DNA of 64,000 nucleotides, from positions 203,647-267,646 of the forward strand of contig CP064982.1 in assembly GCA_016699595.1 (NCBI GenBank). The letters are read 5' to 3'. Below, in pieces: positions 5,973-57,848 of the stretch. Every line of letters starts with the position of its first letter. The stretch's first letter is position 1. Source of the DNA: a bacterium. GTDB lineage: Bacteria; Patescibacteriota; Dojkabacteria; GCA-016699595. The notes under the pieces were generated by a model. The model was not told the DNA's origin and did no database searches. It saw only the letters and a program-made list of their open reading frames with translations. The translations under genes and the position numbers were made by a program.

Positions 5973-8384
5973 TTATCCAACTTGTGCTCCCAATTTTTCT
6001 ACAACTTCTTTTGTTATCAAGTCTACTATATTCTTATCTTCAGAAGTTGCTCTAACTGTAACAGCATGTTTGGTATCTTTATCAAATCTACTTACTTGAG
6101 ATACTTCAATGTCAAAAAAGTTATCTTTTATGAAGTCTACTAGCTCCTTTATCTGAAACCTGTCTCCTACTTCGAATGTTATGTCTTGTGAGATAGCTTC
6201 GGTACTGACTGGTTTGAAATTCAGATTATTCCGCTCACTATATTTCAGCATCTTTTCCAAATCCAATTCTGCAAGTCCAACTTCATTCAGTTTGAAATTC
6301 TCGCTAACTTGGGGGTTCACCAAACCAAAGTAACCTAGAATATCTTCTCCAATTCTTACAATTCCAGCTTGTGATGGATTGAAGATAAGTTGTATATCAT
6401 CCGTGTCTCCTAGTTCAGTAAAACTTACAATTTCATAATTGTCAGATATATTACTAATGTCCAAAACTTCTTGAACATAATGACTCAATTGCTCTAGTTT
6501 ATTTGTAGTTAGCAATCCAAGTTTCCAAGGTTGAGAAGGTATTCTTATTACTCCATTTGACTCGATCATAGAGTTTGTCACAATTCTTGTAAGTTCAAAG
6601 TAATTTATTTCTTCAAATCCAAACCTTCTCCTGTTGATACTTGCTTTTTCCAATAATGATGGTAAAAGTGTATCTCGTAATTTGTTGAGTTCCGGTGATA
6701 AAGGATTTAGAACTTGTATAAGGCTGTTTGAGTTCAGGTTGCTATTTTCCCAAAGATTATCATTTACAAATGTATAACTTAACATTTCATCAAAACTTTG
6801 TCCAATTAAGAAAGTTTTCAACTTCCTTTCCAGTTTTGATACATCGCTTGTTTTAACTGGAGTAGCATTTCGCTTTGGTATTGTTGGCTCTATCAAATTA
6901 TAACCATACAACCTCCCAATTTCTTCAAGTATATCCTCTTCAATGTTTATATCTCTTCGCCAAGTAGGAATAAGAAGTGTCACAAAGTTGGTATTCAAAA
7001 CTGGGTTGACTCCATCGACATTAACATATGCTGCGTGATCTGTGTTGATACCTAGTGATTTTAGCTTATTTATTGCCTCAGTTTTGTCCATACTAATACC
7101 AAGAAATCTCGATACTCTATTGAAGTCAAATTCCACGTACTTGTCACTCATCGGCTCTGGATAAATATCTATAATTTCAGATGCAACCTCTCCCCCTGCG
7201 ATATCTACTATCAAACTAGCAACTTCATTTATTGCTTGCACTGTAAGTTCTGGGTCAAGGCCCTTCTCAAAACGAGTTGATGCCTCTGATCTCAGTCCTA
7301 GAGTTCTACTTGTTCTTCGGATATTGAACATTTCAAAATTCGCAGCCTCAATTAGTATAGTTCTTGTTTCATTACTAATTTCTGAATCCATGCCACCCAT
7401 TATGCCAGCAATGCCAACTGGAGTATTTTCACCATCGCAAATCAACATCATTGATTCATTCAAATCTCTTCTAACATTATCTAATGTAAGAATGCTCTCA
7501 TCAAGATTTGCATCTCTTGCAATCAATTTATTTCCTTTGATTTTACTGTAATCATAAGCATGAATCGGTTGTCCTAAATCCATCATTACAAAGTTCGTAG
7601 CATCTACTATATTATTCACCGGTCTCATACCAACTGAAGCAAGTCTATCCATCAACCAAATTGGTGATGGCCCAACTCTGACACCTTTTATCACTATTCC
7701 TGAAAATCTTTTGCAATTATCTGTTTGTATTTCGATTTCCAAATCAAGATTTGTAGTTTTTGTAGGAAGCTTGTATTCAATTTCTGCAAAATTATCTAAT
7801 TCTAATATTGCATTGACTTCTCTAGCTATACCTTTTATCCCAAAACAATCGCCTCTATGTGTCAAACTTTTATTCTCAATTTCATAAACTATATCAGGGT
7901 TGAATTCGCCCTTGATGTCTTCGTCGGTAACTAATTCAGTACCTACAATTTCATTATTATTCAGTTCAAGTATACCATTATGCTCCGAACTAAGTCCAAG
8001 TTCTCGTTCAGAACAAATCATTCCTTGACTCTTGATTCCTGCAATCTCAGCTTCATCTATATCAAACTTCTCTCCAAATTCATTCAAGCAACTACCGCCT
8101 ACTTTGCAAACGACGACTTTCAAATTGCTTCTTACATTTGTGGCTCCACAAACAATGTCCACAGCTTCATTTCCAATGTCAACTTTGCAGATATGAAGCT
8201 TCTTTGACTTTGGATGTTCGCTAACTTCAAGTACTTCTCCAACAACAAGTTTGTTCAATTTATCATTTCTGAATGTAAATCCCTCAACTTCTGCAAGTTT
8301 TTGTGTTATTTGTGTTCTAAATTCTTCTGTGTCGTTAGTAAGTTTCGGGATATAAGTTTTTAACCAGTTATTTGAAATAAGCAT
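5973..8384 (-). CDS. pheT: phenylalanyl-tRNA synthetase beta subunit
   Basis: 803 aa with typical PheT N-terminus (MLISNNWLKTYIP) and B3/4, B5 and catalytic-like domains. Lies directly downstream of pheS. Confidence 0.9.
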   Translation of the reverse strand: MLISNNWLKTYIPKLTNDTEEFRTQITQKLAEVEGFTFRNDKLNKLVVGEVLEVSEHPKSKKLHICKVDIGNEAVDIVCGATNVRSNLKVVVCKVGGSCLNEFGEKFDIDEAEIAGIKSQGMICSERELGLSSEHNGILELNNNEIVGTELVTDEDIKGEFNPDIVYEIENKSLTHRGDCFGIKGIAREVNAILELDNFAEIEYKLPTKTTNLDLEIEIQTDNCKRFSGIVIKGVRVGPSPIWLMDRLASVGMRPVNNIVDATNFVMMDLGQPIHAYDYSKIKGNKLIARDANLDESILTLDNVRRDLNESMMLICDGENTPVGIAGIMGGMDSEISNETRTILIEAANFEMFNIRRTSRTLGLRSEASTRFEKGLDPELTVQAINEVASLIVDIAGGEVASEIIDIYPEPMSDKYVEFDFNRVSRFLGISMDKTEAINKLKSLGINTDHAAYVNVDGVNPVLNTNFVTLLIPTWRRDINIEEDILEEIGRLYGYNLIEPTIPKRNATPVKTSDVSKLERKLKTFLIGQSFDEMLSYTFVNDNLWENSNLNSNSLIQVLNPLSPELNKLRDTLLPSLLEKASINRRRFGFEEINYFELTRIVTNSMIESNGVIRIPSQPWKLGLLTTNKLEQLSHYVQEVLDISNISDNYEIVSFTELGDTDDIQLIFNPSQAGIVRIGEDILGYFGLVNPQVSENFKLNEVGLAELDLEKMLKYSERNNLNFKPVSTEAISQDITFEVGDRFQIKELVDFIKDNFFDIEVSQVSRFDKDTKHAVTVRATSEDKNIVDLITKEVVEKLGAQVG

Positions 8385-8594
8385 TTTTATATAACAATTA
8401 AATATAAAATATTAGATAAAATCTATTTGATACTAAATATTATTTACTTTCCTTCTATTCTATAATTTACAATAATCATAATGCACTTAGCTAGGTCTGT
8501 GAAGTATTTGGAACTTGAATGCTGATTACATAAACTCTGACTTAGCTTACTTGATAAATATATGATATATCAAGCGTCTAGCACTTAATCATTT

Positions 8595-9623
8595 TCAAAA
8601 CTGATCCAAGAATCTTCGGTCTCCTGAATGAAAAAGTCTAATATCATCGACTGCATACTTTATCATTACCAATCTTTCAAGTCCAAAACCCCAAGCGAAG
8701 CCGGAATAAACCTCGTGGTCAATCTCGGCCATTTTCAAAACATTTGGATGAATCATTCCGCAACCAAGAACTTCCAACCAACCAGTACCTTTCGTTATTT
8801 TCAAAATATTTTCACTTGGATTATCCCATCTAATTTCAATGCCGTTTCCGGGCTCAACGAAAGGAAAGTAATCACAGCTAATTCTGATCTCAACTTCTTT
8901 CTCGAAATAGGCTTCAAAAAAAGTTTTCAAGATACCTATCATATCACTAAACCTAATTCCCTTCCCTACTACGACACCTTCACACTGGAAGAAAGTATGT
9001 TCATGTCGAGCATCAGTGGATTCATGTCGAAAACATTTTCCAATACCTGCAGTTCCAAGAAATCCGTTCTCAAGTGCATCGATTTTCGTAGCGAACTCTT
9101 TCAATATCCTATTTTGAAGTGAGCTAGTATGAGTTATCAAAACATTTTTGTCAACATTTGTAAAAAGTGTATCCCAACTATCTCTTGCTGGATGACCTTC
9201 AGGTATATTTACAGCTTCAAAATTGTTGTATTCACTATCTACCTCAAAAGCATAAGCAATTTCAAAACCCATTTTTTGGAAAATATCTTCAATCTTCCAT
9301 CTTTCTTGTGTGAGTGGATTTAGTTTGCCAATCTTATGTTGCGGAATTGCAAGACTTATATCCTTCCAAGTAGATAGCTGTATTGACAATTCTTTCTTCT
9401 TTAGCTCTTCTCGCTTTGTATCAAAGATATTTTGCAACAATTTTTTTTGATTGTTTAATTCATTTCCAAGCAGTTTTCTTTGCTCTACAGGTAACTGAGT
9501 AAGATCTTTGAACTTTTTCATTAGTTCGGATTGTGGACCGATTGTATCTTTTTCGAAGGTATCTAGTTCTGAAATAGTGTCTATGAGGCTTACTTTATTT
9601 TGTAGTTCAGTTGTTTCTGACAT
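8595..9623 (-). CDS. pheS: phenylalanyl-tRNA synthetase alpha subunit
   Basis: Class II motifs FRHESTDARHEHTFFQCEGVVVG and GFAWGFGLERL. Ends ...RRFLDQF followed by TGA, the canonical PheS C-terminus. The likely ATG start is at MSETTELQ (~9623); the track ORF extends to a TTG at 9653. Confidence 0.9.
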   Translation of the reverse strand: MSETTELQNKVSLIDTISELDTFEKDTIGPQSELMKKFKDLTQLPVEQRKLLGNELNNQKKLLQNIFDTKREELKKKELSIQLSTWKDISLAIPQHKIGKLNPLTQERWKIEDIFQKMGFEIAYAFEVDSEYNNFEAVNIPEGHPARDSWDTLFTNVDKNVLITHTSSLQNRILKEFATKIDALENGFLGTAGIGKCFRHESTDARHEHTFFQCEGVVVGKGIRFSDMIGILKTFFEAYFEKEVEIRISCDYFPFVEPGNGIEIRWDNPSENILKITKGTGWLEVLGCGMIHPNVLKMAEIDHEVYSGFAWGFGLERLVMIKYAVDDIRLFHSGDRRFLDQF

Positions 9624-9682: not shown

Positions 9683-9731
9683 CCTTAGTCTCAACATAGT
9701 GTAGTCGAGCTACCGACTATATTCGATTATA

Positions 9732-10136
9732 TTATATCAAATTCAATTCCCTTAATTTTGCTCCCAAAGCTTTTAGTAGCATTAATTGAAATTTTGTTGT
9801 AGGTTTATGTTCTATTCCTTTAGGATCTGTGAGTTTATCTATACCCTCCCCCAATATTTCAAACGACTCAGGAGGTATTTGCAACAATTGTCTGTAAGTT
9901 ACTGAACTATTCAAAAGAATAAATTCTGCAGCTATTCTAGCTAAATTATTTATAGCTTCACTAAAAACTTTTCGAACTCCTTTTGTTCCAGGATTTATTA
10001 ATTCGCCTGTATTAAAGCTATGTGCTTCTAGTTCCAATAAATCTGGTTTACGCTGTACATTATTTGTAAACAAGCGAACTATTTCATCTACTTTTTCTTG
10101 TTTTTCGCGTTGTTTTTCTTCCTTTCTAGTAGTCAT
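9732..10136 (-). CDS. hypothetical protein (134 aa) between rplT and pheS
   Basis: Clean ATG-to-TAA ORF in operon context. No recognisable motif. Confidence 0.45.
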   Translation of the reverse strand: MTTRKEEKQREKQEKVDEIVRLFTNNVQRKPDLLELEAHSFNTGELINPGTKGVRKVFSEAINNLARIAAEFILLNSSVTYRQLLQIPPESFEILGEGIDKLTDPKGIEHKPTTKFQLMLLKALGAKLRELNLI

Positions 10137-30905: not shown

Positions 30906-32765
30906 TTGAGCCTACTTGAGAAAAACGAACTAGATACTGCGAGTTATATCAAAATAGTTAGAAAATATAGTCGAGATGGAAATTCAACATTCAGCAAAGA
31001 TGACATATTGAAAGAAATTGATGTATTGCTAAGGGTAAAAGGTGAATATTGCTTCCTTGGGGAAGCTGGCGAGCGAAGCGAACCTGAAGGGGTTTTGAAA
31101 AACGAATTAGAATCTCTCAAATCTGCAATCAAACTCAAACCAATGCGAACTGAATCAGGAGTTACTACAGTTACGGTTCTGACTAAACCTTATGCTTGCC
31201 CTGGACAATGTATATTTTGTCCAAATGATGTTCGGATGCCAAAAAGTTATATCGCAACTGAACCTGGAGCTCAAAGAGCTCTGATGTTCAGGTTTTCTCC
31301 ATACGCTCAAGTTTGGAATAGACTTAAAGCTTTGCAAAATATAGGTCATCCAACCGACAAAGTCGAAATGCTTGTACTTGGTGGAACTTGGACGAGTTAT
31401 AAAGAAGATTATAAACTATGGTTTACTTACAATCTTTTCAAGGCTATGAATGATTTTGGAGATGGAATTTGTGATGAGAGGTTAATGACAAAGCAAGATA
31501 TAAGTGAGATATTTGAAAATGATTTTAATGATGATATTAGGAAAAATTACTCCTTCACATGGGAAGGTGTCCAGCAAAGCAGGACAGAAGGGGTTAACTC
31601 TTTAATTGATAAAAGTAAAACTAATTTTATTGAATACAACAAACTTCTCCAAACTCAAGAATTTAAGGCGTGGGAAAAAGAAAATGTTGTTGCAGGAGAT
31701 TTTATGAATTCTCCTACATGGGAAATTTTGTTTGAAGAACAAAATCGAAATTCGAAAGGTAAATGTAGATGCGTGGGTTTAGTTTTTGAAACTAGACCAG
31801 ATAGAATTACACAAAAAGAAGTTTTGACTTTACGAAAACTTGGTGCTACAAAAGTTCAACTAGGAATTCAGATCCTAAATGATGAAATTTCAAGTTTGAA
31901 TAAACGAGGTGAGAATATTGAAGATGCTATGAAAGCTTTTGAATTACTTCGACTTTGGGGCTTTAAAATTCATGTTCATATGATGCCAAATTTACTTGGT
32001 GCAACTCCAAAGCTAGACTTGGAAAGTTATAAGTTACTCGTTAATGATCCTCACTTTCTTCCAGATGAAATAAAAATTTACCCAACAAGTTTGATTGCAA
32101 ATACTGAACTTGAGAATGAGTATAAAGCCGGAAACTGGAGACCTTATGAAACTCAAGAATTGGTTGAATTAATCGCTCAAATGATTGCAGAAACTCCAGA
32201 ATATGTAAGGTTAACTCGTATTATTCGAGATATACCAAGTCAAGAAATTGAAGCTGGAAATAAACTTACTAACTTAAGACAAGTCGTTGAGAAGTATATG
32301 CAAGATAATGATATGCAAGATCAAAATATCAGAGCAAGAGAAATTAAACAGGAAAAAGTAACTTTTGTCGATTTGGAATTGAAAATAGTTGAATATCAAA
32401 CTACAATTTCAAAAGAATTGTTTTTGGAATATGTAAAGCCCCCATTGAAAAAGGGGGGCAAGGGGGATTTTATTGCTGGGTTTTTAAGATTGAGTTTGCC
32501 TATTGATAATATTTCTGCCATGATTCGAGAAATTCATGTTTATGGTCCAAGTTTGGAAATTAGCAAAGATAGTTCTGGCGATGCTCAGCATCTTGGACTT
32601 GGGACTAAGTTGATTGAAAAAGCAAAAAAAATTGCGAAAGATTTGGGTTATAATAGCTTGAAAGTAATTTCAGCGATTGGAACTAGAGAATATTATGCCA
32701 AAAGAGGTTTTGAAATGACGGAAGATGGACTTTATCAATTGACAAAACTAAAAGTTAATTTCTAA
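30906..32765 (+). CDS. elp3: Elp3 family tRNA uridine(34) carboxymethyl-modification enzyme (radical-SAM domain plus C-terminal GNAT/KAT domain)
   Basis: Radical-SAM CxxxCxxC in ACPGQCIFCP, the Elp3 core (LVLGGTWTSY, FETRPDRIT), and a C-terminal GNAT fold (HLGLGTKLIEKAKKIA...YYAKRGFE). The TTG start is uncertain. Confidence 0.8.
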   Translation: MSLLEKNELDTASYIKIVRKYSRDGNSTFSKDDILKEIDVLLRVKGEYCFLGEAGERSEPEGVLKNELESLKSAIKLKPMRTESGVTTVTVLTKPYACPGQCIFCPNDVRMPKSYIATEPGAQRALMFRFSPYAQVWNRLKALQNIGHPTDKVEMLVLGGTWTSYKEDYKLWFTYNLFKAMNDFGDGICDERLMTKQDISEIFENDFNDDIRKNYSFTWEGVQQSRTEGVNSLIDKSKTNFIEYNKLLQTQEFKAWEKENVVAGDFMNSPTWEILFEEQNRNSKGKCRCVGLVFETRPDRITQKEVLTLRKLGATKVQLGIQILNDEISSLNKRGENIEDAMKAFELLRLWGFKIHVHMMPNLLGATPKLDLESYKLLVNDPHFLPDEIKIYPTSLIANTELENEYKAGNWRPYETQELVELIAQMIAETPEYVRLTRIIRDIPSQEIEAGNKLTNLRQVVEKYMQDNDMQDQNIRAREIKQEKVTFVDLELKIVEYQTTISKELFLEYVKPPLKKGGKGDFIAGFLRLSLPIDNISAMIREIHVYGPSLEISKDSSGDAQHLGLGTKLIEKAKKIAKDLGYNSLKVISAIGTREYYAKRGFEMTEDGLYQLTKLKVNF

Positions 32766-33599
32766 CCTATCAATTGGACTTTGAATTTTCCTTTTATGAG
32801 CATCAGTAATATGTGTATATATTTGTGTAGTTTTTATATTTTTATGACCCAATAACTCCTGAACCACCCGGATATCTATACCATTTTCTATCAAATGCGT
32901 TGCAAAGCAGTGCCTAAGAGTATGAACGCTCGCAGGCTTATTTACTTCGGAACTCAATAATGCATTTTTAAAAACTTCTTGTACACTTCTTACATTATAC
33001 ATTTCACCACTTCTTCCCTCAAAAATATATTTCTTAGGTTGATATTTTACATAATACTTTCGAAGCAATAATAAGATGTTCGAAGATAACATAACTTCTC
33101 TATCTCTATTACCTTTCCCTCCACGAATCAATATTGTCATCCTTTTGGAATCAATATCCGCTATTTCCATCTTCACTAGTTCTGATACTCGTAATCCTGC
33201 ACTATAAATCAGGGAAACTATTGCCCGATGTTTTATATTTTTGATGCTTTGTATGATCTTCTTGATATCTTCCTCTGATAAAACAAATGGCAATTTATAA
33301 ACTCGTCTATCTGGATAAATATAATCAATTTGAATTTCCAGTTTAAGTACATATTTATAAAATAATTTTATTGAGCTAATGATACCCTTCTGTGCAGACT
33401 GAGAAATATTCTGTTCATTAATTTTGTAGCAAATATATTGTAATACGTCACTTTCGGAAATGCTATTAATTTCTTTGTTTGCAAAATATTTGAGGAAGTC
33501 TTTGATATAGGAAGAATAAGCACGAATAGTATTTGGCGAGTATCTCTTTACCTTCAATATTTCGATGAACTTCGTGATTAGTGACTCTGGCGGATTCAT
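32748..33599 (-). CDS. tyrosine-type site-specific recombinase / phage integrase family
   Basis: Catalytic tail HTLRHCFATHL...LLGHKNIKTTQIYTH (R..H..R...Y). Its 3' end overlaps the elp3 stop by 18 nt. Confidence 0.85.
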   Translation of the reverse strand: MNPPESLITKFIEILKVKRYSPNTIRAYSSYIKDFLKYFANKEINSISESDVLQYICYKINEQNISQSAQKGIISSIKLFYKYVLKLEIQIDYIYPDRRVYKLPFVLSEEDIKKIIQSIKNIKHRAIVSLIYSAGLRVSELVKMEIADIDSKRMTILIRGGKGNRDREVMLSSNILLLLRKYYVKYQPKKYIFEGRSGEMYNVRSVQEVFKNALLSSEVNKPASVHTLRHCFATHLIENGIDIRVVQELLGHKNIKTTQIYTHITDAHKRKIQSPIDRLEINF

Positions 33600-33729
33600 A
33601 ATACACTATTATAGCAAAAATATTAGTGTATAATCTAGTAAAGTTCGTATAACCTAGTGTTATATGACATATTTTGATGGCAATAAAAAACGAAGGTTTT
33701 AAAAACTTTTATTAAGATACAATATTATT

Positions 33730-34419
33730 ATGAAAACAGTAGGAATAATTGGAGGTCTTGGACCAGAAACAACATCGGAATTTTACCTAGATGTAGTTTT
33801 TTCGTGCCAGAAAAAAGACAAAACTCATAGGCCTTCAATCATAATCGCCAGCGTCCCTTTGCCATACAAAATTGAAGAAGAAGCTATTGCTAAAAACATT
33901 GGATTTGAAAGAATACCTCCTTTTTTAATTGAAGAGGCAAAAAGACTAGAAAAAGCTGGTGCTGATTTTATTGTTATGCCGTGTAATTCTTTGCATGTTT
34001 TTATCAAAGAGATCAGGGACGCTGTCGATACTCCTGTTTTAAGTATCGTGGAAGAAACGGTAAAATTCCTCAAGAGAAATAATTTGAATAAAGTAGGCAT
34101 TGTTTCTACTTCTGCGACGATTAAGAATAAATTATACGAGAATGCCTTCGCTGAGAATAAAATTGGTTACGAAACTCCAGACGATTTTCAACAAGCGAAA
34201 ATGGGTAAATTTATTCTTAATCTTGTTACTGGAATGCAGAATAACAGAGATAGAGATGAACTTATTCAAATTATTTCTGATTTTGAAAAGAAAAATGTTG
34301 ATTGTGTCGTGTTGGCATGCACAGACCTCCAATTATTAATCCCTCAACATCCATCCTTAAAGATATTCGACACAATGAAAATATTTGCCGATGCAACTGT
34401 TGAGGAATTATTAAAATAA
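33730..34419 (+). CDS. aspartate/glutamate racemase family protein
   Basis: GIIGGLGPETT (GG[LM]GP), PCNSLH and VLACTDL (the two catalytic Cys regions). Confidence 0.7.
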   Translation: MKTVGIIGGLGPETTSEFYLDVVFSCQKKDKTHRPSIIIASVPLPYKIEEEAIAKNIGFERIPPFLIEEAKRLEKAGADFIVMPCNSLHVFIKEIRDAVDTPVLSIVEETVKFLKRNNLNKVGIVSTSATIKNKLYENAFAENKIGYETPDDFQQAKMGKFILNLVTGMQNNRDRDELIQIISDFEKKNVDCVVLACTDLQLLIPQHPSLKIFDTMKIFADATVEELLK

Positions 34420-34449
34420 AAGTTTTTAAAATTATTATAAAATTGCCAT

Positions 34450-34625
34450 CAAAATACGCTAAAGCCCCACTGCGCTCTCGCTTCACTGCGTTACGCTCGG
34501 GTCATATAACACAGTATATGCGGTGAGAGCCTTGCAGGCTCTCACCCATATTCCGCTACAATTTTTAAAATGATAAAATAATGGTGTAGCGGAACATCGC
34601 ATATACTGGAACGTTAGGCGAAATA
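34450..34625 (+). repeat. GC-rich structured repeat R1, copy a (contains a perfect 10-bp hairpin GGTGAGAGCC/GGCTCTCACC)
   Basis: Shares ordered blocks with copy b at ~36860-37015: GCCCCRCTGCGCTCTC, then RTATAACACAGTRTATGCGGT, then a GC hairpin, then ACCCATATT, then ...AACGTTA. Local GC is about 50% against a ~30% background. Confidence 0.6.
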
Positions 34626-34653
34626 ATTCAAAATTAATTTAAAACTTTTTACT

Positions 34654-35166
34654 ATGAAACATACTTTATTATTCTTAATCACTATAACAATTATGAGTAT
34701 CTTTTTATCAGGCTGTAATAACAATTCGACGCAGAAAAATGAAGTTGATATTGTTTATCAAGCAATTAACATGATATCTTCCAATAATAATCTAGTTAAT
34801 AAAACTCCTTCTGAACTGTATGAATTATTAAATTTAAGTAAAGATATTTACAAAATTACCACACACTCGCATTCAGAAAATTATCAAAATTTACAAATAT
34901 CAGTAATTGATAAAAAGATTGGTGCATATGATTTAGCGAAAAAGATGAATATATCTAACGCTAATGCATATGAAGTGAATGCAGAACATTCGATATGGGT
35001 TATTGGAAGTAAAAATGAACCATTTGAATCATATAATGGATTAAATATCGATATTCATATTACCTATCCAAGTAAAAATTCAATTAAGGGTAGTTCATAT
35101 TCTGGAAATACAGGAAGCCTCAAAAATACATATATTGATTACATATACATAAATATACCAGAATAA
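34654..35166 (+). CDS. lipoprotein (lipobox LSGC), unknown function
   Basis: N-terminus MKHTLLFLITITIMSIFLSGCNNNS is a SPase II signal with Cys+1. Confidence 0.6.
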   Translation: MKHTLLFLITITIMSIFLSGCNNNSTQKNEVDIVYQAINMISSNNNLVNKTPSELYELLNLSKDIYKITTHSHSENYQNLQISVIDKKIGAYDLAKKMNISNANAYEVNAEHSIWVIGSKNEPFESYNGLNIDIHITYPSKNSIKGSSYSGNTGSLKNTYIDYIYINIPE

Positions 35167-35534
35167 AAATTAATTTTGAATTACATCGCCTAACACTGAG
35201 TATCCGGTTCCACAAAATGGACTCAATAATAAAGATAAAGACTGTCCATTTTGTTCCACCCAAGTTTTTTGCCAACAAATATGCTGAAACTGAATGTCTT
35301 CCAGTAAATAAACAAAAGTGCTAGGATACACGTAAATACTGAGAAATCCGGCAAAAAACTTCCGATACTCAGAAACGTTATACGCAATTCAAAAAATATT
35401 TTTCTTATAGTAAGGAATTTTGACAGACTTTTAAAAAGAGGAATAAATTTGTTTTTTTATTTATGCTGATGGGGATAGCGGTATTTTCTCCGCTATCGCT
35501 CCGAAAATGGTTTATAATTTAACTAAACATAATT

Positions 35535-36737
35535 ATGGGATTTGAAGATTACACTCCACCAATAGATGATATTAAAACTGGCATACAACCAGAAGTAACA
35601 GAAAGTGGTCCTAAACCACCAGTTTTGTCATTCAAAAGGAATAGTGATATTCACTTTGAAAGGTTTGGACAAACTTTTACATACGACAGTATTGCCCTTT
35701 ATCAAGAGGAAGGAAATCTGGTTACTCTTGATAGTTTGGAAAAGCTACCTCCTTCCGTTTTGCTTCAAACTGTTCTGAATATTTCTCAAATGATTGAATT
35801 ACAACAAGATATTAAGGCTTTTTCTGAAGGTGGGCTTGATATTGATGCGGCAGTAGAAAATGGCGAAGAAGTTTTAGCAATGCAATTTCAAGATATTAGA
35901 AAAGTTTTAGATGATTTGGCTTTTACCCAACAATTTTCAAAAGATGATCTTACCAAAATGCTTGACTATGTTTATGGAACCGGAAAGCCCAAGCCTTTCA
36001 CTGAAGGATTATCGTCAGTACTTTTCGCCTCTGCTTTAGCATTTCAGAGAGAACTACTTTATTCAGCCATGGAATCTCGAAAAATGAGTTTAGAAGAAGC
36101 ATCGGGAATCATTAGGAAACTTCCTTACGGAGGAACATTTTTGCTTGAGGGTGAACCAACGCTTAATGAGCTCTCGCAATTTTTTACTCAAACTGAAGAC
36201 GAAGCTGAAAAGAACTTAGTCGTAGATCAGCAAGGAAGGTATTTTTTAGTCCAAGGAATGAGCAAAGATACTGGTGTTATAACATATAGAAGTTTCCCTG
36301 ATTTGGTTGCAGATTATCATACGCACAGAATTGATTACCCTTTTTCCGCAGGAGATATTGGCGCTTATAAAGCTTTAGGTGACTCCAGAGATATTTATTC
36401 AATTACTTCTGACGAAGTAAGATTTTTCGTATGTAGTCCCAGTGGAATTTTTGAATTTGAAGGAAATTTGGAAGAAAATGTCTTTGATAAGCAGGACAGA
36501 AAAAATGATAGTGTAATGATTCCTTGCACTGTCATAAATGAAGATACAGGAGAACAAGCAAGTTTTGATGTTTATACTAATCATGCAATAGGAGAATCCG
36601 GTAGATTTATACAAGAACAAATGGAGAAAAAACCTAGACGACTAAGAATTGAACTTGAGAATGGTGATATTATTCGTTTTACTTCATGGGAGGAATTAAA
36701 GAGAGGTGATAAATTAAATTCAGATAATCATGAATAA
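35535..36737 (+). CDS. hypothetical protein (400 aa) with a possible JAMM-like HxH...SxxD motif
   Basis: Clean ATG ORF with acidic composition. YHTHRIDYPFSAGD resembles the JAMM metal site, but the spacing is one residue short. A GC hairpin (GATAGCGG...CCGCTATC) lies just upstream at ~35470-35495. Confidence 0.5.
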   Translation: MGFEDYTPPIDDIKTGIQPEVTESGPKPPVLSFKRNSDIHFERFGQTFTYDSIALYQEEGNLVTLDSLEKLPPSVLLQTVLNISQMIELQQDIKAFSEGGLDIDAAVENGEEVLAMQFQDIRKVLDDLAFTQQFSKDDLTKMLDYVYGTGKPKPFTEGLSSVLFASALAFQRELLYSAMESRKMSLEEASGIIRKLPYGGTFLLEGEPTLNELSQFFTQTEDEAEKNLVVDQQGRYFLVQGMSKDTGVITYRSFPDLVADYHTHRIDYPFSAGDIGAYKALGDSRDIYSITSDEVRFFVCSPSGIFEFEGNLEENVFDKQDRKNDSVMIPCTVINEDTGEQASFDVYTNHAIGESGRFIQEQMEKKPRRLRIELENGDIIRFTSWEELKRGDKLNSDNHE

Positions 36738-36859
36738 ATAAGGAGTTTTGGTTTTTTGGCATTCACCCCTAACCCCTCCGCCCAAAATCCAAAACAAAAA
36801 ACAAATTTATGATTATTGAATAAAAAGCCTGTCAAAATGAAATTGAATGAAAAATATTT

Positions 36860-37015
36860 TTTGAACTCGCTCCTTTCAGTCGCGCCCCGCTGCGCTCTCC
36901 TCCCTTCGGTCGTCGGGGCGTATAACACAGTGTATGCGGTTCGGGGTTCGGCTCGCCCCTTACCCATATTTTTGCTCCCGTTGGTCGCAACTTCTCATAT
37001 CCGCAAACGTTATAT
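36860..37015 (+). repeat. GC-rich structured repeat R1, copy b
   Basis: See copy a; same orientation, about 2.4 kb downstream. Partial related fragments are at ~35178-35200 and ~35355-35385. Confidence 0.6.
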
Positions 37016-37089
37016 ATAATTTGAATCAGGAATAAAAAGAAAATAATGTGAAGGTAAAAATTTATATAGATTGCTAATTCATCAATATT

Positions 37090-37987
37090 ATGGACAAAAA
37101 AATCATAAATCATTACTTACAATTCGGCACATTTACTAACCCGGGCTGTTACAAAGAATTTCTTCAAAATCTTCCAGATGATGTCAAAGAACTGGGCAAT
37201 TTAATCAGTCATCAAGTTATTCATCGCGTTACACTCAAAGAAGGCAACACAAAATCTAACAGGGATTTACGATATGGGGATATGAAAAGATATCCTTGGC
37301 ATAGATTGAGATGTGAAGATGATATTTTGCCTACTACCGTTTCAATGATTGCAGAATTATTAAGATTTGATGACCGAGGGTTTTTGCCCGACAGAAAAGT
37401 TGAAAATAAAATTGTTGTCACCTGTCGTTTTGTGGCAATACTTATGGCTTCAATTTTAAAGTCAAAAGGTGTCCCTTGCAGAGTCCGTTCGGGATTTGCC
37501 CCCTATTTTTCAAAGGCAGTTGGGATCATTGGATAAATCAATACTGGGATAAAGATAAACAAAAATGGATTACTTTTGACGCTGATGGATTTTTTGACAG
37601 TACTATTGGTTTTGACCAGTATGATATGCCTGCGAAAAAGTTGATTGGGCAGCAGATACATGGCTCGGAATAAGAGGGGGCAAACTAGATGCCAACAACT
37701 TTAGAAATGCAGATGGTTCTGTTGGACTTATGCCAGTTCTTTGGGCAATATTTTATGATTTTCATAGTTTAATGAATAACGAAATTCTTTATAATCAAAT
37801 GCCTAGTTATATCTATTTCAAATTTGATAAATTGACTGAAAAAGATTTTGAAGAAATTGATGAATTAGCCAAATTGATGTTAGAACCAGATAAAAACTTT
37901 CATGAATTAGTCAAAATTTGGAATACAAAAAAGAAATTCAGAACTTTGAATGGTCCACTTATTAGTGATAGTGATCATTTTAAATAG
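37090..37987 (+). pseudogene. transglutaminase-like cysteine protease domain protein disrupted by two frameshifts at homopolymer runs
   Basis: The core Cys (VTCRFVAIL), His (GSWDHW) and Asp (FDADG) are split across three frames. Breaks are at the T5 run (~37506) and the A5 run (~37634), and the reading frame continues into ORF 37730..37987. Confidence 0.6.
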
Positions 37988-38172
37988 AAATAAATTTTAA
38001 GTACCTACTTACTACTTATGAAAAATTACAAAACATTGATGCTATATTATTTGACATGATGGGTGTTCTGCTTTTTCAAAGAAAAGATTATATCCCGAAC
38101 AAACTTGTTGATGAAATAGATTCTAAGATTGGAGATGTAACAAATGACGATATTTTCAAGCAAGAAACTGTG

Positions 38173-38270
38173 CAAGAATTTGGGTTATAATAGCTTGAAA
38201 GTAATCTCAGCAATCGGAACTTGAGAATACTAGGTTTTGAAATGACGGAAGATGGGATGTATCAGATTGT
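38173..38270 (+). repeat. degenerate duplicate (~85% identity, 12-bp deletion) of the elp3 3' end (32634-32745); attR-like island boundary
   Basis: TTTGGGTTATAATAGCTTGAAAGTAAT[C/T]TCAGC...GTTTTGAAATGACGGAAGATGG is shared with the elp3 C-terminal coding sequence. Confidence 0.75.
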
Positions 38271-38785: not shown

Positions 38786-38860
38786 TCTGACGTAGGTCCT
38801 TTCAATTTTATAAAACGCAATGGCTAAACCTAACAAAAACTTTAAGGAAGTCAATCTGGA
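38786..38860 (+). repeat. R2 repeat copy a
   Basis: CTGACGTAGGTCnTTTCAATTTTA(T)AAAACGCAATGGCTAAACCnAAnAAAAACTTTAAGGAAGTC recurs at 40465-40540. Confidence 0.6.
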
Positions 38861-40110: not shown

Positions 40111-40464
40111 GAAGATGTTTTTAAAGTACGCCTAAAAACTTCTATTGAACTTTACTGCTAAAAGCATATTGGATTGTCAAGTCAATGTTGCGTTATTTTA
40201 AATTTGGCTAATGCACAAATTGTTATAAGTTTGAAATAAAGATTAGCAGTTTAGTATAGGATATATAAACAATATCCCTACTCCATTCTAACTTTCAAAC
40301 CCTCAATCTCACCTACTATTCTTCGCGATTCGAGGTTGTATACAACTAACTTTGAGTTATTCGGTCTTCCTTGAAAGCCATCTATTCTAGCATTCTCAAA
40401 ATCATGTATGTCTTTGAGTTCATACTTTTCTAGAAAAAGAAACAAACCATCTTCTCCTGACGTA

Positions 40465-40540
40465 GGTCATTTCAATTTTAAAAACGCAATGGCTAAACCC
40501 AATAAAAACTTTAAGGAAGTCTTTGATACACGAGAAATAA
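40465..40540 (+). repeat. R2 repeat copy b
   Basis: See copy a. It runs directly into the integrase remnant. Confidence 0.6.
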
Positions 40541-40700
40541 GCACGAATAGTATTTGGCGAGTATCTCTTTACCTTCAATATTTCGATGAACTTCGTGATT
40601 AGTGATTCTGACAGATTTATAATTAATACACTATAAATAGCAAAAATATTAGTGTATAATGTAGCAAAGTTCGTATAACCTAGTGTTGTCCGAAATTCTC
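40528..40700 (-). pseudogene. remnant of a tyrosine integrase gene: 5' ~90 bp of coding sequence plus upstream region, about 90% identical to 33494-33690, with the start codon mutated
   Basis: AAGCACGAATAGTATTTGGCGAGTATCTCTTTACCTTCAATATTTCGATGAACTTCGTGATTAGTGA and the promoter-region block TAGCAAAAATATTAGTGTATAAT...AGTTCGTATAACCTAGTGTT are duplicated. The CAT (ATG) at the start position is now TAT. Confidence 0.7.
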
Positions 40701-40779
40701 TTTTGTGAAATAGTTTTAATAAGGAAAATTTTTTGGAACTTTTTATTTTTAATTTAATAATTTTTTAACAAATACTACT

Positions 40780-41388
40780 ATGGAAAACTCCAACGAACAG
40801 TCGCAAGGACAGACCATAAAGTGTCCTTCGTGCAAAGAAGCTATTCAGCTTGGCGCAAAGAAATGCAAACATTGTGGCGCAGATTTGAGAAATTGGTTTG
40901 TTAGGCACAAAGTCATAACTGGTATACTGATTATTATTGGAATTGGAATTATTGGAAGCGCTATGGGTGGCAATGAAACAAAAAATACTTCTGACAGCTC
41001 GTCCACCACTAACAATGTACAAGAGGCTAAGTCTACTGCAGATGTAAAAGCTGAAGCAGACACTAAAGTAGCAGAAAGCGTGCCAGCTGAATATAAATCT
41101 GCTTTGAGCCAAGCAGAAACTTATGCCAACACAATGCACTTGTCAAAGCAGGGCGTCTACGATCAGCTTGTTTCAGAGTATGGTGGAAAGTTTCCAAAAG
41201 AAGCCGCACAATATGCAATTGATAATGTAAAAGCTGATTGGAACGCAAATGCGCTTTCTCAAGCAAAAACTTACCGAGATACTATGCACTTATCGACAGC
41301 AGCAGTTCGTGACCAGCTCATTTCAGAATATGGAGCAAAGTTTACAAAAGTAGAGGCAGACTATGCCATTCAGCATCTCAATGATTAG
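40780..41388 (+). CDS. Ltp-like protein: N-terminal zinc ribbon (CPSC...CKHC), TM helix, and two tandem host-cell-surface-exposed-lipoprotein (HcsEL) type repeats
   Basis: The repeats ALSQAETYANTMHLSKQGVYDQLVSEYGGKFPKEAAQYAIDN and ALSQAKTYRDTMHLSTAAVRDQLISEYGAKFTKVEADYAIQH resemble the phage TP-J34 Ltp superinfection-exclusion repeat family. GC is about 40%. Confidence 0.55.
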   Translation: MENSNEQSQGQTIKCPSCKEAIQLGAKKCKHCGADLRNWFVRHKVITGILIIIGIGIIGSAMGGNETKNTSDSSSTTNNVQEAKSTADVKAEADTKVAESVPAEYKSALSQAETYANTMHLSKQGVYDQLVSEYGGKFPKEAAQYAIDNVKADWNANALSQAKTYRDTMHLSTAAVRDQLISEYGAKFTKVEADYAIQHLND

Positions 41389-41529
41389 TGTGTCTATTGT
41401 TTTTCCATGGAGTTAAAAAATGCGAATTGAGATAAAAAGTGCCAAAAAATTATCTTTTATAATTTCACAAAAGAGAACTCAAGGGGACGTTGCGCTTTTG
41501 ATTTCTCTTTTTAGATTTTAAAGCTAAGG

Positions 41530-41680
41530 AAAGAAATCAAACCCTCGGACAACACCGAATAAACGGAAAATGCCTCGGCTCGGCATTTTCGCAAATTCGT
41601 TTTCACTAAGTTTCAAACGAACTTCGTTTATTCGGAAACGTTGTCCGACATATTTTTCTGAAAATTTTTACAAGAAAGTT
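41530..41680. other. structured inverted-repeat region between convergent genes (nested hairpins; possible bidirectional terminator or small RNA)
   Basis: Outer arms CGGACAAC..GAATAAACG / CGTTTATTCGGAAACGTTGTCCG. Inner 9-bp hairpin GAAAATGCC/GGCATTTTC and a second hairpin TTCGTTT/AAACGAA. Confidence 0.4.
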
Positions 41681-45976: not shown

Positions 45977-46057
45977 ATACCGAGGACAGGACTTGAACCT
46001 GCATGCCTTTCGGCGCTTGCTCCTAAGGCAAGTGCGTCTACCATTTCGCCACCTCGG
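45977..46057 (-). tRNA. tRNA-Leu (anticodon UAG) with a long variable arm
   Basis: Minus strand: GCCGAGG-TG-GCGAAATGGTAGACGC-A-CTTGC CTTAGGA GCAAG-C-GCCGAAAGGCATGC-AGGTTCAAGTCCTGTCCTCGGTA. Cloverleaf with a 7-nt anticodon loop CU-UAG-GA. Local GC is elevated. Confidence 0.8.
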
Positions 46058-46107
46058 CAATATATACAATAATATACACTACTTAACATTTGATCGTGTA
46101 GATGAAT

Positions 46108-56234: not shown

Positions 56235-57848
56235 CTATTGAATTATCCCTCTTCCGAAGCAAACTTCGCCATTGTAGAAAACTGCACTTTGACCTGAAGA
56301 GATTCCACGAACTGGTTCTGCGAAGTTTAGCTCATTATTTTCTAAGTTTAATGTTGCTCGAACAGGTTTTGCTCTATAGCGAACTTCAACTTCAAGATCA
56401 ACCAACCCACCTCGTCCTTCGGACACTCCTCCAATGGAGGAGAATAATTTTGAATTTATGAAATGAAGGTTTTCAAGTTGGCAACTATTTTTATATAACT
56501 TCGGATTATCAGTTCCTTGAACTACATACAAAATATTTTTTTCTAAATTCTTGCTACTTACAAAATATGGTTTTTGATGTGGCGAAATTACTTTGATTTT
56601 ATTCAGACCTTCTCGTTGACCTATAGTATAAAATGCAATCCCATCATGCTCACCTACTTTAAGCCCACTGTCTTCATCTACTATAATTCCAGGTTTATAA
56701 GCGATATTATTCCTCAAAAACTGAGCAACATCAATATCTCCTATAAAACAAATTCCTTGAGAATCTTTCTTTGTTGCAATTGGAAGTTCAAACTCTTCTG
56801 CTAATTTTCGAACTTCACTTTTTTGTAAATGACCAATTGGAAATAGTGTTTTGCTAAGCTGAAATTGATTTAGATCAGACAGAAAATAAGACTGATCTTT
56901 GTTTTGATCCAAACCTTTTAGTAAAAAATATTCAACAGATTTAGATTGATTATTTACATTAGCAAATTCTACAGTTGGGCCTTCCTGATAAGGAGGGTAA
57001 ATTTCGCTTTGCGAAATTTGGGAGGTTAAATAATTTTTAATTTTAGTGCAAACAATTTCAAAATTATACTCTACATCATTACTTTCAAATCTTAAAACAT
57101 TTATTCCTAGACTATTTAAATAATTCGTTCTTACTTTATCATATTCTAAACCTTCAGTAGTAAAGTGTTCTGCACCATCAAGTTCTATTGCAAGATTATA
57201 TTTTGAACAATAAAAATCTACTATGAAATTTCCTATTGGTTTTTGTCTTGTAAATTTATAATTTTCTAGTTTTGATAAGAAGTCATACCAAAGATGATTT
57301 TCAGACCTAGTTGCTCGTTTGTGATGTCTATTTAATTTTGTCAAGTTTGTATTGTAATTAACCCACCGTCCCGCTTCGCTGTCCACCTCCCTTGACAGGG
57401 AGGCCACCAAATTTGGAGTGATATTGTCAGTACTTGACTTTACTCTTGCATAATGTCCTGTTGCGATCATATCAGCGTCTTCCTCTAATGCTCTATTTAG
57501 AAAAGTTCCAAACTTGATTTTACTATTGCAAAGTATATCTGGGTTTGGAGTTCTACCTGCTCTATATTCATCAAAAAAATAATTTACAACTTGTTCTCTA
57601 TATTCTTTTTCAAAGTTATATATCTTCATCTCAATTCCAAGTTTGTCGCAAACTAACTTCACATCTTCTACATCCTTTTCCCATGGACAATCAGTTTGAA
57701 TTCCAAAATCTTCACCTGACCAATTTTTCATGTAAACTCCAACTACATTATCTCCATTTGATTTCAAAAGTGCTGCAACTACTGAAGAATCAACTCCTCC
57801 GGACATTGCAACGAATATTGTTTTTTTGCCGCTGTCTATAACATTCAT
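56235..57848 (-). CDS. mnmA: tRNA-specific 2-thiouridylase MnmA carrying an in-frame ~170-aa insertion that contains a complete DUF559/Vsr-like endonuclease domain
   Basis: PP-loop SGGVDSSV, ATGHYAR, then the insert, then EYFLLKGLDQNKDQSYFL (canonical LRGLD.NKDQSYFL) and GICFIGD. The insert contains FTRQKPIGNFIVDFYCSKYNLAIELDGAEH...GINVLRFESNDV. Confidence 0.85.
   Translation of the reverse strand: MNVIDSGKKTIFVAMSGGVDSSVVAALLKSNGDNVVGVYMKNWSGEDFGIQTDCPWEKDVEDVKLVCDKLGIEMKIYNFEKEYREQVVNYFFDEYRAGRTPNPDILCNSKIKFGTFLNRALEEDADMIATGHYARVKSSTDNITPNLVASLSREVDSEAGRWVNYNTNLTKLNRHHKRATRSENHLWYDFLSKLENYKFTRQKPIGNFIVDFYCSKYNLAIELDGAEHFTTEGLEYDKVRTNYLNSLGINVLRFESNDVEYNFEIVCTKIKNYLTSQISQSEIYPPYQEGPTVEFANVNNQSKSVEYFLLKGLDQNKDQSYFLSDLNQFQLSKTLFPIGHLQKSEVRKLAEEFELPIATKKDSQGICFIGDIDVAQFLRNNIAYKPGIIVDEDSGLKVGEHDGIAFYTIGQREGLNKIKVISPHQKPYFVSSKNLEKNILYVVQGTDNPKLYKNSCQLENLHFINSKLFSSIGGVSEGRGGLVDLEVEVRYRAKPVRATLNLENNELNFAEPVRGISSGQSAVFYNGEVCFGRGIIQ

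Follow-up and report, generated by a model that had tools for sequence, protein, structure and literature searches.

Two GC-rich repeats in a genome of the Dojkabacteria raise the question of whether they belong to a transposable element, a structured RNA or a system for gene exchange. The repeats, R1a (34442-34619) and R1b (36849-37015), lie in a 64,000-nucleotide stretch of contig CP064982.1 (assembly GCA_016699595.1, positions 203,647 to 267,646 of the forward strand), referred to here as the window; all coordinates are window positions unless another locus is named. A reading made from the sequence only had described them as a structured pair bracketing a lipoprotein and a 400-residue protein, and had offered three identities: a miniature inverted-repeat transposable element (MITE), the recombination sites of a nested cassette, or a small structured RNA gene. 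Our analysis leads us to conclude with good confidence that R1a and R1b are attC-type recombination sites ending mobile gene cassettes in an integron-like array.

Both repeats were present, homologous and co-oriented on the plus strand. The ordered blocks said to be common to them aligned with a mean column identity of 74%, and R1b was recovered as a BLASTN match when the 64-kb window was searched with R1a (E = 1.2e-7). With up to three mismatches allowed, the 16-mer GCCCCRCTGCGCTCTC had three matches (exact in R1a and R1b, and with three mismatches at 57368) versus 0.03 expected from shuffles. The reported GC enrichment was confirmed, with values of 0.53 at 34450-34549 and 0.55-0.56 at 36850-36999 in surroundings of 0.22-0.36. 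The strong hairpin ascribed to each copy was found in R1a, as a perfect 10-bp stem (34523-34532/34536-34545) in a fold with z = -7.9 against shuffles on the top strand and -8.7 on the bottom strand; R1b had no strong fold. Open reading frames (ORFs) 34654-35166 and 35535-36737 are indeed situated between the repeats. The related fragments noticed at about 35178-35200 and 35355-35385 are real and form the two ends of a third site (35188-35383). This third attC contradicts the idea of two repeats around one cargo: R1a closes cassette 1 and R1b closes cassette 3. The earlier suggestion of recombination sites therefore stood, and that of nesting did not, as the cassettes are serial (attI, cassette, attC, cassette, attC). 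The complete order is a divergent recombinase gene, an attI-like core, cassette 1 with R1a, cassette 2 with an attC that lacks the GC-rich block, cassette 3 with R1b, and a truncated cassette.

The search for further copies yielded two more attC-type sites in the window and a family of sites on metagenome contigs. A covariance model trained on 83 family members and run on the 64 kb with filters off found exactly four sites, all on the plus strand (34504-34619, 35188-35383, 36920-37015 and 41547-41646); the next best match had E = 0.26, and the middle site was outside the training set. A profile built without window sequences recovered the same four, with E-values of 1.2e-16 for R1b, 1.6e-15 for R1a, 3e-9 for the middle site and 4.6e-9 for 41548-41645. 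A motif search with AAACGTTA gave matches at chance level and was useless alone. Each of the four sites is placed 3' of one ORF, and all share the layout NNNTAAC, a, L'' (9-11 nt), variable centre, L' (9-11 nt), [G/A]AAC and GTTNNNN.

The core attC of R1a (34502-34619), which was also recovered by the geometry scan and scored 71.8 bits in the covariance model, contains R'' ATATAAC (34504-34510), L'' (34512-34522), L' (34598-34608), a GAAC spacer (34609-34612) and the G|TT point (34613|34614). Hairpin 1 occupies 34523-34545 and hairpin 2 approximately 34551-34594. On its 5' side lie an optional GC-rich module (34457-34501; motif CACTGCGCTCTC, with homologous blocks in locus L006) and an outer, or extended, arm (34442-34456), whose 15 nt are 100% complementary to the start of its own cassette (33670-33684). 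The middle attC (35167-35383; fold z = -4.8; 48.8 bits, E = 7.8e-10) has no GC block and comprises an outer arm (35167-35187), R'' GCCTAAC (35188-35194), L'' (35196-35204), L' (35364-35372), an AAAC spacer and G|TT at 35377|35378. R1b consists of an outer arm (36849-36865) with 17 nt 100% complementary to the start of cassette 3 (35388-35404), an optional GC-rich module (36866-36917; motif CGCTGCGCTCTC) and a core attC (36918-37015) with R'' GTATAAC (36920-36926), G|TT at 37009|37010, 61.2 bits and four non-standard pairs. The fourth attC (core 41545-41646; G|TT at 41640|41641; fold z = -7.8/-8.3; 64.6 bits) belongs to a second platform considered below. All of these parts are on the plus strand.

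R1b differs from the other sites in its composition. Its 5' half is near-identical to the intact sites of L127, L188 and L148 (L box CAGCGTATGCG/CGCATACGCTG), and its 3' half (CTCATATCCGC-AAAC) is of the L099/L110/L128 type; it is thus a chimeric site with a broken L helix (four broken pairs) and is probably no longer recombinogenic.

The family was collected with a DNA pattern taken from the site core, which gave at least 120 metagenome contigs, and the family counts given here are drawn from the contigs listed. A profile search produced 204 matches, up to five per contig, and 131 sites had canonical geometry. The L helix (11-12 bp) is maintained by compensatory changes: 8 of its 12 pairs showed compensatory double changes, each in 22-50 of 83 sequences, and positions G11-C, T14-A and G19-C were invariant.

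Cassette boundaries lie at G|TT, and what follows G|TT is already part of the next cassette. Across 30 pairs of adjacent sites, agreement of the four variable positions behind GTT with the next R'' was 87, 87, 70 and 73%, compared with 67, 40, 33 and 47% for the site's own R'' and 66, 48, 17 and 34% for a random site. The same attC was joined to different neighbours on different contigs, as seen in 41 cross-contig site pairs that were at least 93% identical over the last 60 attC nt and continued into unrelated downstream DNA. In 21 of the 41 pairs the first difference was at position 3 after the G, which is the earliest possible divergence because TT is invariant.

The flank of each cassette's own downstream site carries, in reverse complement, the sequence with which that cassette begins after G|TT. 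In the lipoprotein cassette, GTTAGGCGAAATAATTCAAAATTAATTT pairs with AAATTAATTTTGAATTACATCGCCTAAC over 28 nt at 93% (34613-34640/35167-35194). This complementarity is the signature of circular units whose site splits on insertion, and a chain-walk by the same rule led from attI to R1a and on to the middle attC. When cassette ends were joined in silico to their own starts, the circular junctions had 25-65 pairs across the junction (z = -5 to -14), with 36-37 pairs for cassette 1 (z about -12), 55-57 for cassette 3 and 65 for the cassette at 40686-41646 (z = -12 to -14). The longest ORF was co-oriented with the attC in 27 of 32 cassettes, and most cassettes measured 0.4-1.3 kb. The best promoter-like site (35420-35449, 10/12 matches) lies in a cassette leader, with promoter-like matches overall at chance level; scans for sigma-70 promoters and for terminators found no more matches than in shuffles. 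Three contigs (L089, L175 and L189) had terminal direct repeats of 76-125 nt, reflecting either circular molecules or assembly through repeated attCs, and were not used as evidence.

The bottom strand was the more stable one in 95 of 102 sites (-22.5 vs -19.6 kcal/mol, p = 8e-18). Mismatches in the L box, read on the top strand, were A.C in 20 cases versus G.T in 8. A.C on top is a G.T wobble on the bottom. Stability and mismatches alike are as would be expected of the classical bottom-strand substrate, and they speak against an mRNA structure. The spacer asymmetry (1 nt vs 4 nt) is conserved and the L helix contains no single extrahelical bases. AAC and GTT are invariant, and their flanking bases do not strictly follow RYYY/RRRY.

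The enzyme that would move these cassettes is probably encoded next to them. A Xer/IntI-like tyrosine recombinase of 283 residues (32748-33599, minus strand) is divergent from the cassette array and is probably the cassette recombinase, despite the missing I2 insertion. It passed NCBIfam NF040815 (XerA-type) with 233 bits (cut-off 220) and stayed below the cut-off of TIGR02249 (integron integrase; 219.7 vs 265), the match splitting in two at the position of the IntI additional domain. In that region it has 22 residues where VchIntIA (2a3v) has 65. In the alignment it lacks approximately 42 residues relative to the canonical 322-residue IntI, and R137, K162, H226, R229, H252 and Y261 are conserved. 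XerA of Pyrococcus and of Thermoplasma gave the best matches to PDB sequences. The additional domain specific to IntI, the I2 helix region near patch III, was absent from the 283-residue enzyme, and no second tyrosine recombinase or IntI-type protein was found in the 64-kb window.

As in integrons, an attI site adjoins the recombinase gene and the array diverges from that gene. The attI-like core (33644-33661, plus strand), read from the sequence, is TTCGTATAAC-CTAGT-G|TT, with the first cassette starting after G33659. Read as TTCGTATAAC-CTAGT-GTTNNNNGAC, it would by inspection hold a 7-bp overlap region if the cuts fall at AA|C and G|TT. The attI arm TTCG[TC]ATA, 5-8 nt before GTT|, was found beside 20 or more homologous recombinases, and in the form TTCG[TC]ATA[AT] it is conserved beside each of the 12 full-length short recombinases described below. 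L003 and L004 agree completely as far as the end of the attI GTT, and their sequences part immediately downstream.

The closest recombinases, 58-64% identical, come from metagenome-assembled genomes (MAGs) belonging to the candidate phyla radiation (CPR), namely Nomurabacteria, Paceibacteria, Saccharibacteria and Campbellbacteria, which makes a CPR origin of the window probable. On the contigs listed via the attC pattern, all 12 full-length short recombinases (270-283 residues, 36-39% identical to the window enzyme) were upstream of the array and divergent from it. The genome-derived loci L006, L007, L201 and L202 have the same recombinase-array arrangement, and L006, a Nomurabacteria MAG, carries the same platform with four attCs, three of them with a GC block homologous to that of R1a. 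Chained attC arrays were also present in the cultured Bacteroidota Avrilella dinanensis and Bernardetia sp. OM2101, beside homologues 52-53% identical to the window enzyme. In A. dinanensis at least five chained attCs lie beside a 276-residue homologue, with the links GTTATGCAT then ATGCATAAC, GTTATGTGT then ACACATAAC, GTTAGCGTT then AACGCTAAC, and GTTAGCAGA then TCTGCTAAC; the chain of Bernardetia sp. OM2101 is similar.

Further features were observed at the attI sites of related loci. In the attI regions of L128 and L108 some arms read ATAACTTCGTATA, which we take to be identical to the 13-bp Cre-binding arm of loxP. Other attI arms, TTTCGCATAA ... TTATGTAAAAT, presumably resemble the two arms of E. 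coli dif. Several loci have a second attI-arm copy about 45 nt upstream, an arrangement that we assume to be reminiscent of the accessory direct repeats of attI1. In L202 (A. dinanensis; 9711-10000, 8418-8785 and 1435-1816 of that locus), a GC-rich two-hairpin unit of 131 nt occurs in three identical copies, one at attI and the others at two attCs, each immediately 5' of G|TT. With its cassette-like start GTAGCGAGGAAAT and inner box CCTCGCTAC, the unit has the look of a mini-cassette without an ORF. A similar unit is present at the attI of L027, near position 7200 of that locus.

Several points weigh against an integron-like array served by the short enzyme. The 131 canonical sites had been pre-selected for at most two L-box mismatches, so that the percentage of paired positions is partly built in; this does not apply to the variety of pair types. 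At repeats, contigs from metagenomes may be chimeric. Such chimeras may have inflated the count of 41 neighbour swaps, but the complementarity of R' to the next R'' cannot be created in this way. R1b itself folds with z = +0.6/+0.25, and its inner helix has four non-pairs, with an imperfect GGGG/CCCC hairpin remaining. Classical RYYYAAC boxes and single extrahelical L-box bases were not seen in the family, which has a 3-nt bulge instead, and no excised circle, empty site or recombination product was observed. The passages of PMC9668308 and PMC8138268 that refer to Messier & Roy (2001) and MacDonald (2006) describe the additional domain as necessary for attC recombination in IntI1 and VchIntIA, so that attC recombination is not the obvious role for an enzyme lacking this domain. 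The window of 64 kb is about 8% of the source contig, and the gene of a canonical IntI could lie outside it. Among approximately 200 loci examined, the IntI-specific segment was found in one, L163 (2.1 kb, 1-2121), where a canonical 322-residue IntI (TIGR02249, 468.9 bits) lies 36 nt downstream of a single HIT-family cassette with a family attC. The presence of this gene indicates that canonical and short enzymes coexist in these communities. As proof that canonical IntI serves the family, L163 was set aside, given that its gene order is not intI-attI and the contig is only 2.1 kb long.

The missing domain, the IntI of L163, the small part of the source contig in view and the fact that most archaeal attC arrays have no detectable IntI would all fit ordinary integron attCs served in trans by a canonical IntI from elsewhere in the genome or community, that is, a cluster of attC sites lacking integrase (CALIN), with the neighbouring short recombinase unrelated to cassette movement. 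We regard this as distinctly unlikely. It does not account for the upstream, divergent position of the short recombinase in 12 of 12 contigs, for a first cassette that begins at the GTT of the adjoining conserved site, for the difference between L003 and L004 exactly at the attI GTT, or for the recurrence of the arrangement in the four genome-derived loci. The lack of a second tyrosine recombinase in 64 kb and the single I2 segment among the loci also speak against it, and the IntI of L163 is on the wrong side of the cassette for the classical arrangement. A variant of the integron-like reading, which we consider unlikely, is that the recombinase is primarily the cell's chromosome-dimer resolvase (a single Xer of the 'Cand' type), attI is its dif, and the cassettes are hitchhikers similar to integrative mobile elements exploiting Xer (IMEX), entering dif as folded hairpins in the way CTXphi does through XerCD. 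The enzyme passes the XerA-type model and has no accessory insertions, attI by inspection would have two related arms around its 7-bp overlap region, and the TTTCGCATAA/TTATGTAAAAT arms presumably resemble those of dif. In single-Xer systems such as XerS/difSL the gene is kept beside its own site. A 'Cand' Xer-related subgroup of candidate phyla may replace Xer (Smyshlyaev et al. 2021, PMC8138268). That attI occurs twice in the window, in one case with a decayed recombinase, would nevertheless be odd for an essential single-copy dif, and the local GC skew and gene orientation are unlike those of a terminus, although 64 kb is too little to judge this. Moreover, close homologues occur in Bacteroidota, which normally possess XerC/D.

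The remaining explanations concern the repeats rather than the enzyme. That R1a and R1b are structured RNAs (3' untranslated region stabilisers, terminators or small RNAs), transcribed together with the upstream ORFs or after them, with recombination incidental, is very improbable, although the sites come directly after the 3' ends of co-oriented ORFs, contrast in their high GC with an AT-rich genome and have covarying helices, and a separate hairpin in the trailer of cassette 3 (36745-36795) could act as RNA. Rfam covariance models matched nothing overlapping any attC site, either at the gathering threshold or at E <= 5; the sole match of Rfam 15 in the window at the gathering threshold was a tRNA at 45978-46058. 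The strand that folds more stably is the non-coding one, the mismatches favour G.T on it, no U-tract follows the sites, and terminator-like matches were at chance level. An RNA would also leave unexplained the complementarity of R' to the next R'' and the swapping of neighbours at G|TT. The suggested RNA gene thus found no support, nor did the MITE-like element. Accumulation of selfish repeats of the MITE type or of the repetitive extragenic palindromic (REP) type in intergenic regions appears extremely improbable: the four copies in 64 kb form a single co-oriented array beside a recombinase, with none dispersed in the window, no target-site duplications were found at their borders, and the junctions are precise at G|TT. 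The motif of the GC block never occurred off attC or on the opposite strand. What such repeats would explain is the repeated, palindromic and GC-rich character of the sites, the behaviour of leaders and trailers as long inverted repeats, and the polymorphic presence of the GC block.

For the integron-like array we propose a mechanism, analogous to those of known systems, that we consider somewhat more probable than not. The recombinase would act on the folded bottom strand, in which the R arm would mimic one double-stranded attI arm and the L arm the other. The R arm would be NNNNTAAC/GTTANNNN, extended to 11 bp, and the L arm would contain TC-NN-ATA, like the attI arm. Asymmetry would come from the 3-nt spacer bulge together with two mismatched bases that are conserved in the R arm (positions +7/+8). 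A single strand would then be exchanged at G|TT and the product resolved through replication. Both IntI acting on attC and XerCD acting on the CTXphi hairpin are known to use this route of one-strand exchange and replication.

The GC-rich module can be placed relative to this core. It is optional, measures 37-96 nt and, in independent sites, interrupts the complementarity between cassette start and attC flank exactly 11 nt 5' of the AAC end. Since 11 bp is the length of a Xer binding arm, the footprint expected of the recombinase would end just short of the module, which, being beyond the 11-bp R arm, should leave the recombination core undisturbed. Of the 127 unique family sites, 35 carried it, without exception on one and the same strand and 5' of R''. 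One cassette tail occurred in three states, with a 52-nt block (window, L148, L127 and L188), a 37-nt block (L099) or none (L140). The module has a conserved 12-mer, CGYTGCRCTYTC, and flanking G/C runs that flip between GGGG..CCCY and CCCC..GGGG; long variants contain an inner hairpin with a G-rich loop. Folded alone, modules had a mean z of -0.6, with 4 of 35 below -2, so the module is not strongly self-structured, and its closing G/C stem is merely suggestive. Away from attCs, the loci examined had only chance-like matches of the block motif, in coding DNA, and the idea of a dispersed mini-element was dropped for this reason. The module may serve in binding or as an architectural element, or it may be a selfish insert that is tolerated. 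L183 has, at about position 1822, a deletion variant without most of the attC core, in which the GC block runs straight into an L'-AAC-GTT end (..GCGCTTTCGCTCGGATATCCCTAACGTTGTCCG).

Cassette 1 (33660-34613, plus strand) contains an Asp/Glu-type racemase ORF (33730-34419; TIGR00035, 160 bits, with a PF01177 match) followed by R1a, and a racemase cassette is present in the L123 array as well. Cassette 2 (34614-35377, plus strand) encodes a 170-residue lipoprotein (34654-35166) with the lipobox LSGC. Cassette 3 (35378-37009, plus strand) carries the 400-residue ORF (35535-36737) between a leader (35378-35534) and a trailer (36738-36865). Neither the 170-residue nor the 400-residue protein had a Pfam, NCBIfam, PADLOC or PDB-sequence match giving a function. 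The leader and trailer of cassette 3 are mutually complementary and recur at 75-97% identity on many contigs around unrelated ORFs, whereas the ORF does not; cassettes thus seem to share a palindromic frame for different genes. The start of cassette 3, TTATACGCAATTCAAA, was found after at least five different attCs.

The trailer hairpin of cassette 3 (36745-36795, plus strand; loop ATTCACCCCTAACCCCTCC) had 30 copies in the loci examined. Its consensus has a stem GTTTTGG.../...CCAAAAC and a loop ATTCACCCCT..AACCCCTCY; the stem is 14 bp long, with compensatory double changes in 10 pairs. The hairpin is mostly preceded by ATAAGGAG directly after the stop codon and had no Rfam match. It is a structured motif that has apparently not been described before and that would act either at the RNA level or in single-stranded DNA.

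Downstream of R1b, a fourth-cassette remnant without attC (37010-38161, plus strand; ORFs 37090-37536 and 37730-37987) extends to the start of a 3' remnant of Elp3 at 38162. Neither the chain-walk nor the covariance model found a matching attC downstream of R1b in the window, and the cassette was cut off by a rearrangement. The two ORFs, which have no family match, may be one gene broken by frameshifts.

A second, decayed platform lies 7 kb further along (40504-40687, minus strand). It consists of a recombinase 5' end (39 codons, 40504-40620) and a second attI (arm 40670-40679, G at 40685), with 89.7% identity to 33483-33661 over 184 nt and 85% identity over 39 residues by tblastn. One cassette adjoins this attI (40686-41646, plus strand), with a zinc-ribbon/Ltp-like ORF (40780-41388; PF07553, 8.7e-44), an outer arm (41462-41477) and a 67-nt GC block (41478-41544). 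The R' of its attC corresponds to its own cassette start, as expected for a single insertion at attI. The second platform arose either by duplication of the whole platform or by arrival through homologous exchange. The Elp3 3' end at 32626-32741 is 79.7% identical to 38162-38269, as in a diverged tandem platform duplication, and in the second copy 742 nt of the recombinase body are replaced by 2.2 kb of other DNA. A 66-nt direct repeat (38787-38852 and 40457-40521, 94% identical) probably marks the rearrangement that destroyed the second recombinase, because one copy abuts the truncated fragment. The full Elp3 homologue (bacterial, radical-SAM/GNAT; 30906-32765, TIGR01211, 443 bits) overlaps with its last codons the 3' end of the first recombinase gene. 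The tRNA gene at 45978-46058 is on the minus strand and has a long variable arm; by eye, the end of the L006 array also adjoins a tRNA-like gene.

Taken more broadly, a natural recombinase of Xer-like architecture and without I2 may run a genuine cassette system whose substrates are folded attC hairpins; such a system would be widespread among CPR bacteria and would also exist in culturable Bacteroidota. We hold this generalisation tentatively, at slightly less than even chances. If true, the system would be either a living 'proto-integron', from before IntI gained the I2 helix, or an independent solution to the same problem. The parts of PMC7790495 and PMC9668308 that treat this step hold that acquisition of the I2 helix turned a Xer-like double-strand recombinase into a user of folded single-stranded attC. 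Arrays with all footprints of attC recombination and an enzyme without I2 would test that step. They would also provide a candidate recombinase for many 'orphan' attC arrays (CALINs) in uncultured bacteria, perhaps also in Archaea, and would give CPR bacteria, for which the routes of gene acquisition are poorly known, a further platform for exchanging genes. Several attC features would be new to integrons, namely 11-bp dif-like arms, complementarity of whole leaders and trailers, ORF-less mini-cassettes and, embedded in the site, a GC-rich module that has a conserved 12-mer. The leader/trailer complementarity and the ORF-less mini-cassettes bear on the old question of how cassettes are made. 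As homologous platforms exist in cultured Avrilella and Bernardetia, the question is directly testable at the bench. In the literature searched on integrons of CPR, Patescibacteria and Bacteroidota, the coverage of which was incomplete so that earlier publication is possible, we found no I2-less recombinase tied to attC arrays and no description of integrons in CPR bacteria.

The platform described here works like an integron, yet its recombinase falls outside the protein family by which integrons are defined. It resembles sedentary chromosomal integrons (the Vibrio cholerae superintegron, with attC of the V. cholerae repeat (VCR) type and IntIA) in having a divergent recombinase, attI and mostly single-ORF, co-oriented cassettes. 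Shared features also include imperfect-palindrome ends with AAC/GTT outer boxes, the G|TT boundary, R' bases supplied by the next cassette, related attCs within and between arrays, a better-folding bottom strand and cargo mostly of unknown function. In contrast to chromosomal integrons, the recombinase has no IntI-specific insertion of approximately 42 residues and scores below the TIGR02249 cut-off. The complementarity extends beyond the 7-bp R box, to an 11-bp arm and up to the whole leader and trailer, and a spacer of 1 nt versus 4 nt between R and L takes the place of an unpaired central spacer and extrahelical bases. An optional GC-rich module 5' of R'' and leader/trailer modules common to unrelated ORFs are further differences.

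The likeness to IMEX at dif, such as CTXphi, concerns the reaction. There, a Xer-type enzyme without I2 recombines a folded single-stranded hairpin that mimics a double-stranded site, the exchange of a single strand is resolved by replication, and tandem arrays accumulate at the site. Unlike IMEX, the units here are single-gene cassettes of 0.4-4 kb with integron-type AAC/GTT boxes and not phage genomes. By the formal rule of the IntegronFinder nomenclature, the array is a CALIN, with at least two attC sites and no IntI-profile protein nearby (64 kb). CALINs are viewed as degraded integrons, whereas in many independent contigs the arrays described here are found together with an attI-like site and a conserved, catalytically intact recombinase. 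A likeness to archaeal integrons (Ghaly et al. 2022, PMC9668308) is that cassette arrays occur in uncultured lineages with small genomes; in that work, 75 genomes had arrays and only six IntIs were found, which carry the additional domain, and no alternative recombinase was proposed for the arrays without IntI. In protein architecture, the window enzyme is like XerA, XerS, XerH and the 'Cand' Xer-related subgroup, which are described as dimer resolvases, in a survey that also notes that the IntI insertion shows incomplete conservation within the integron-like subgroup (Smyshlyaev et al. 2021, PMC8138268).

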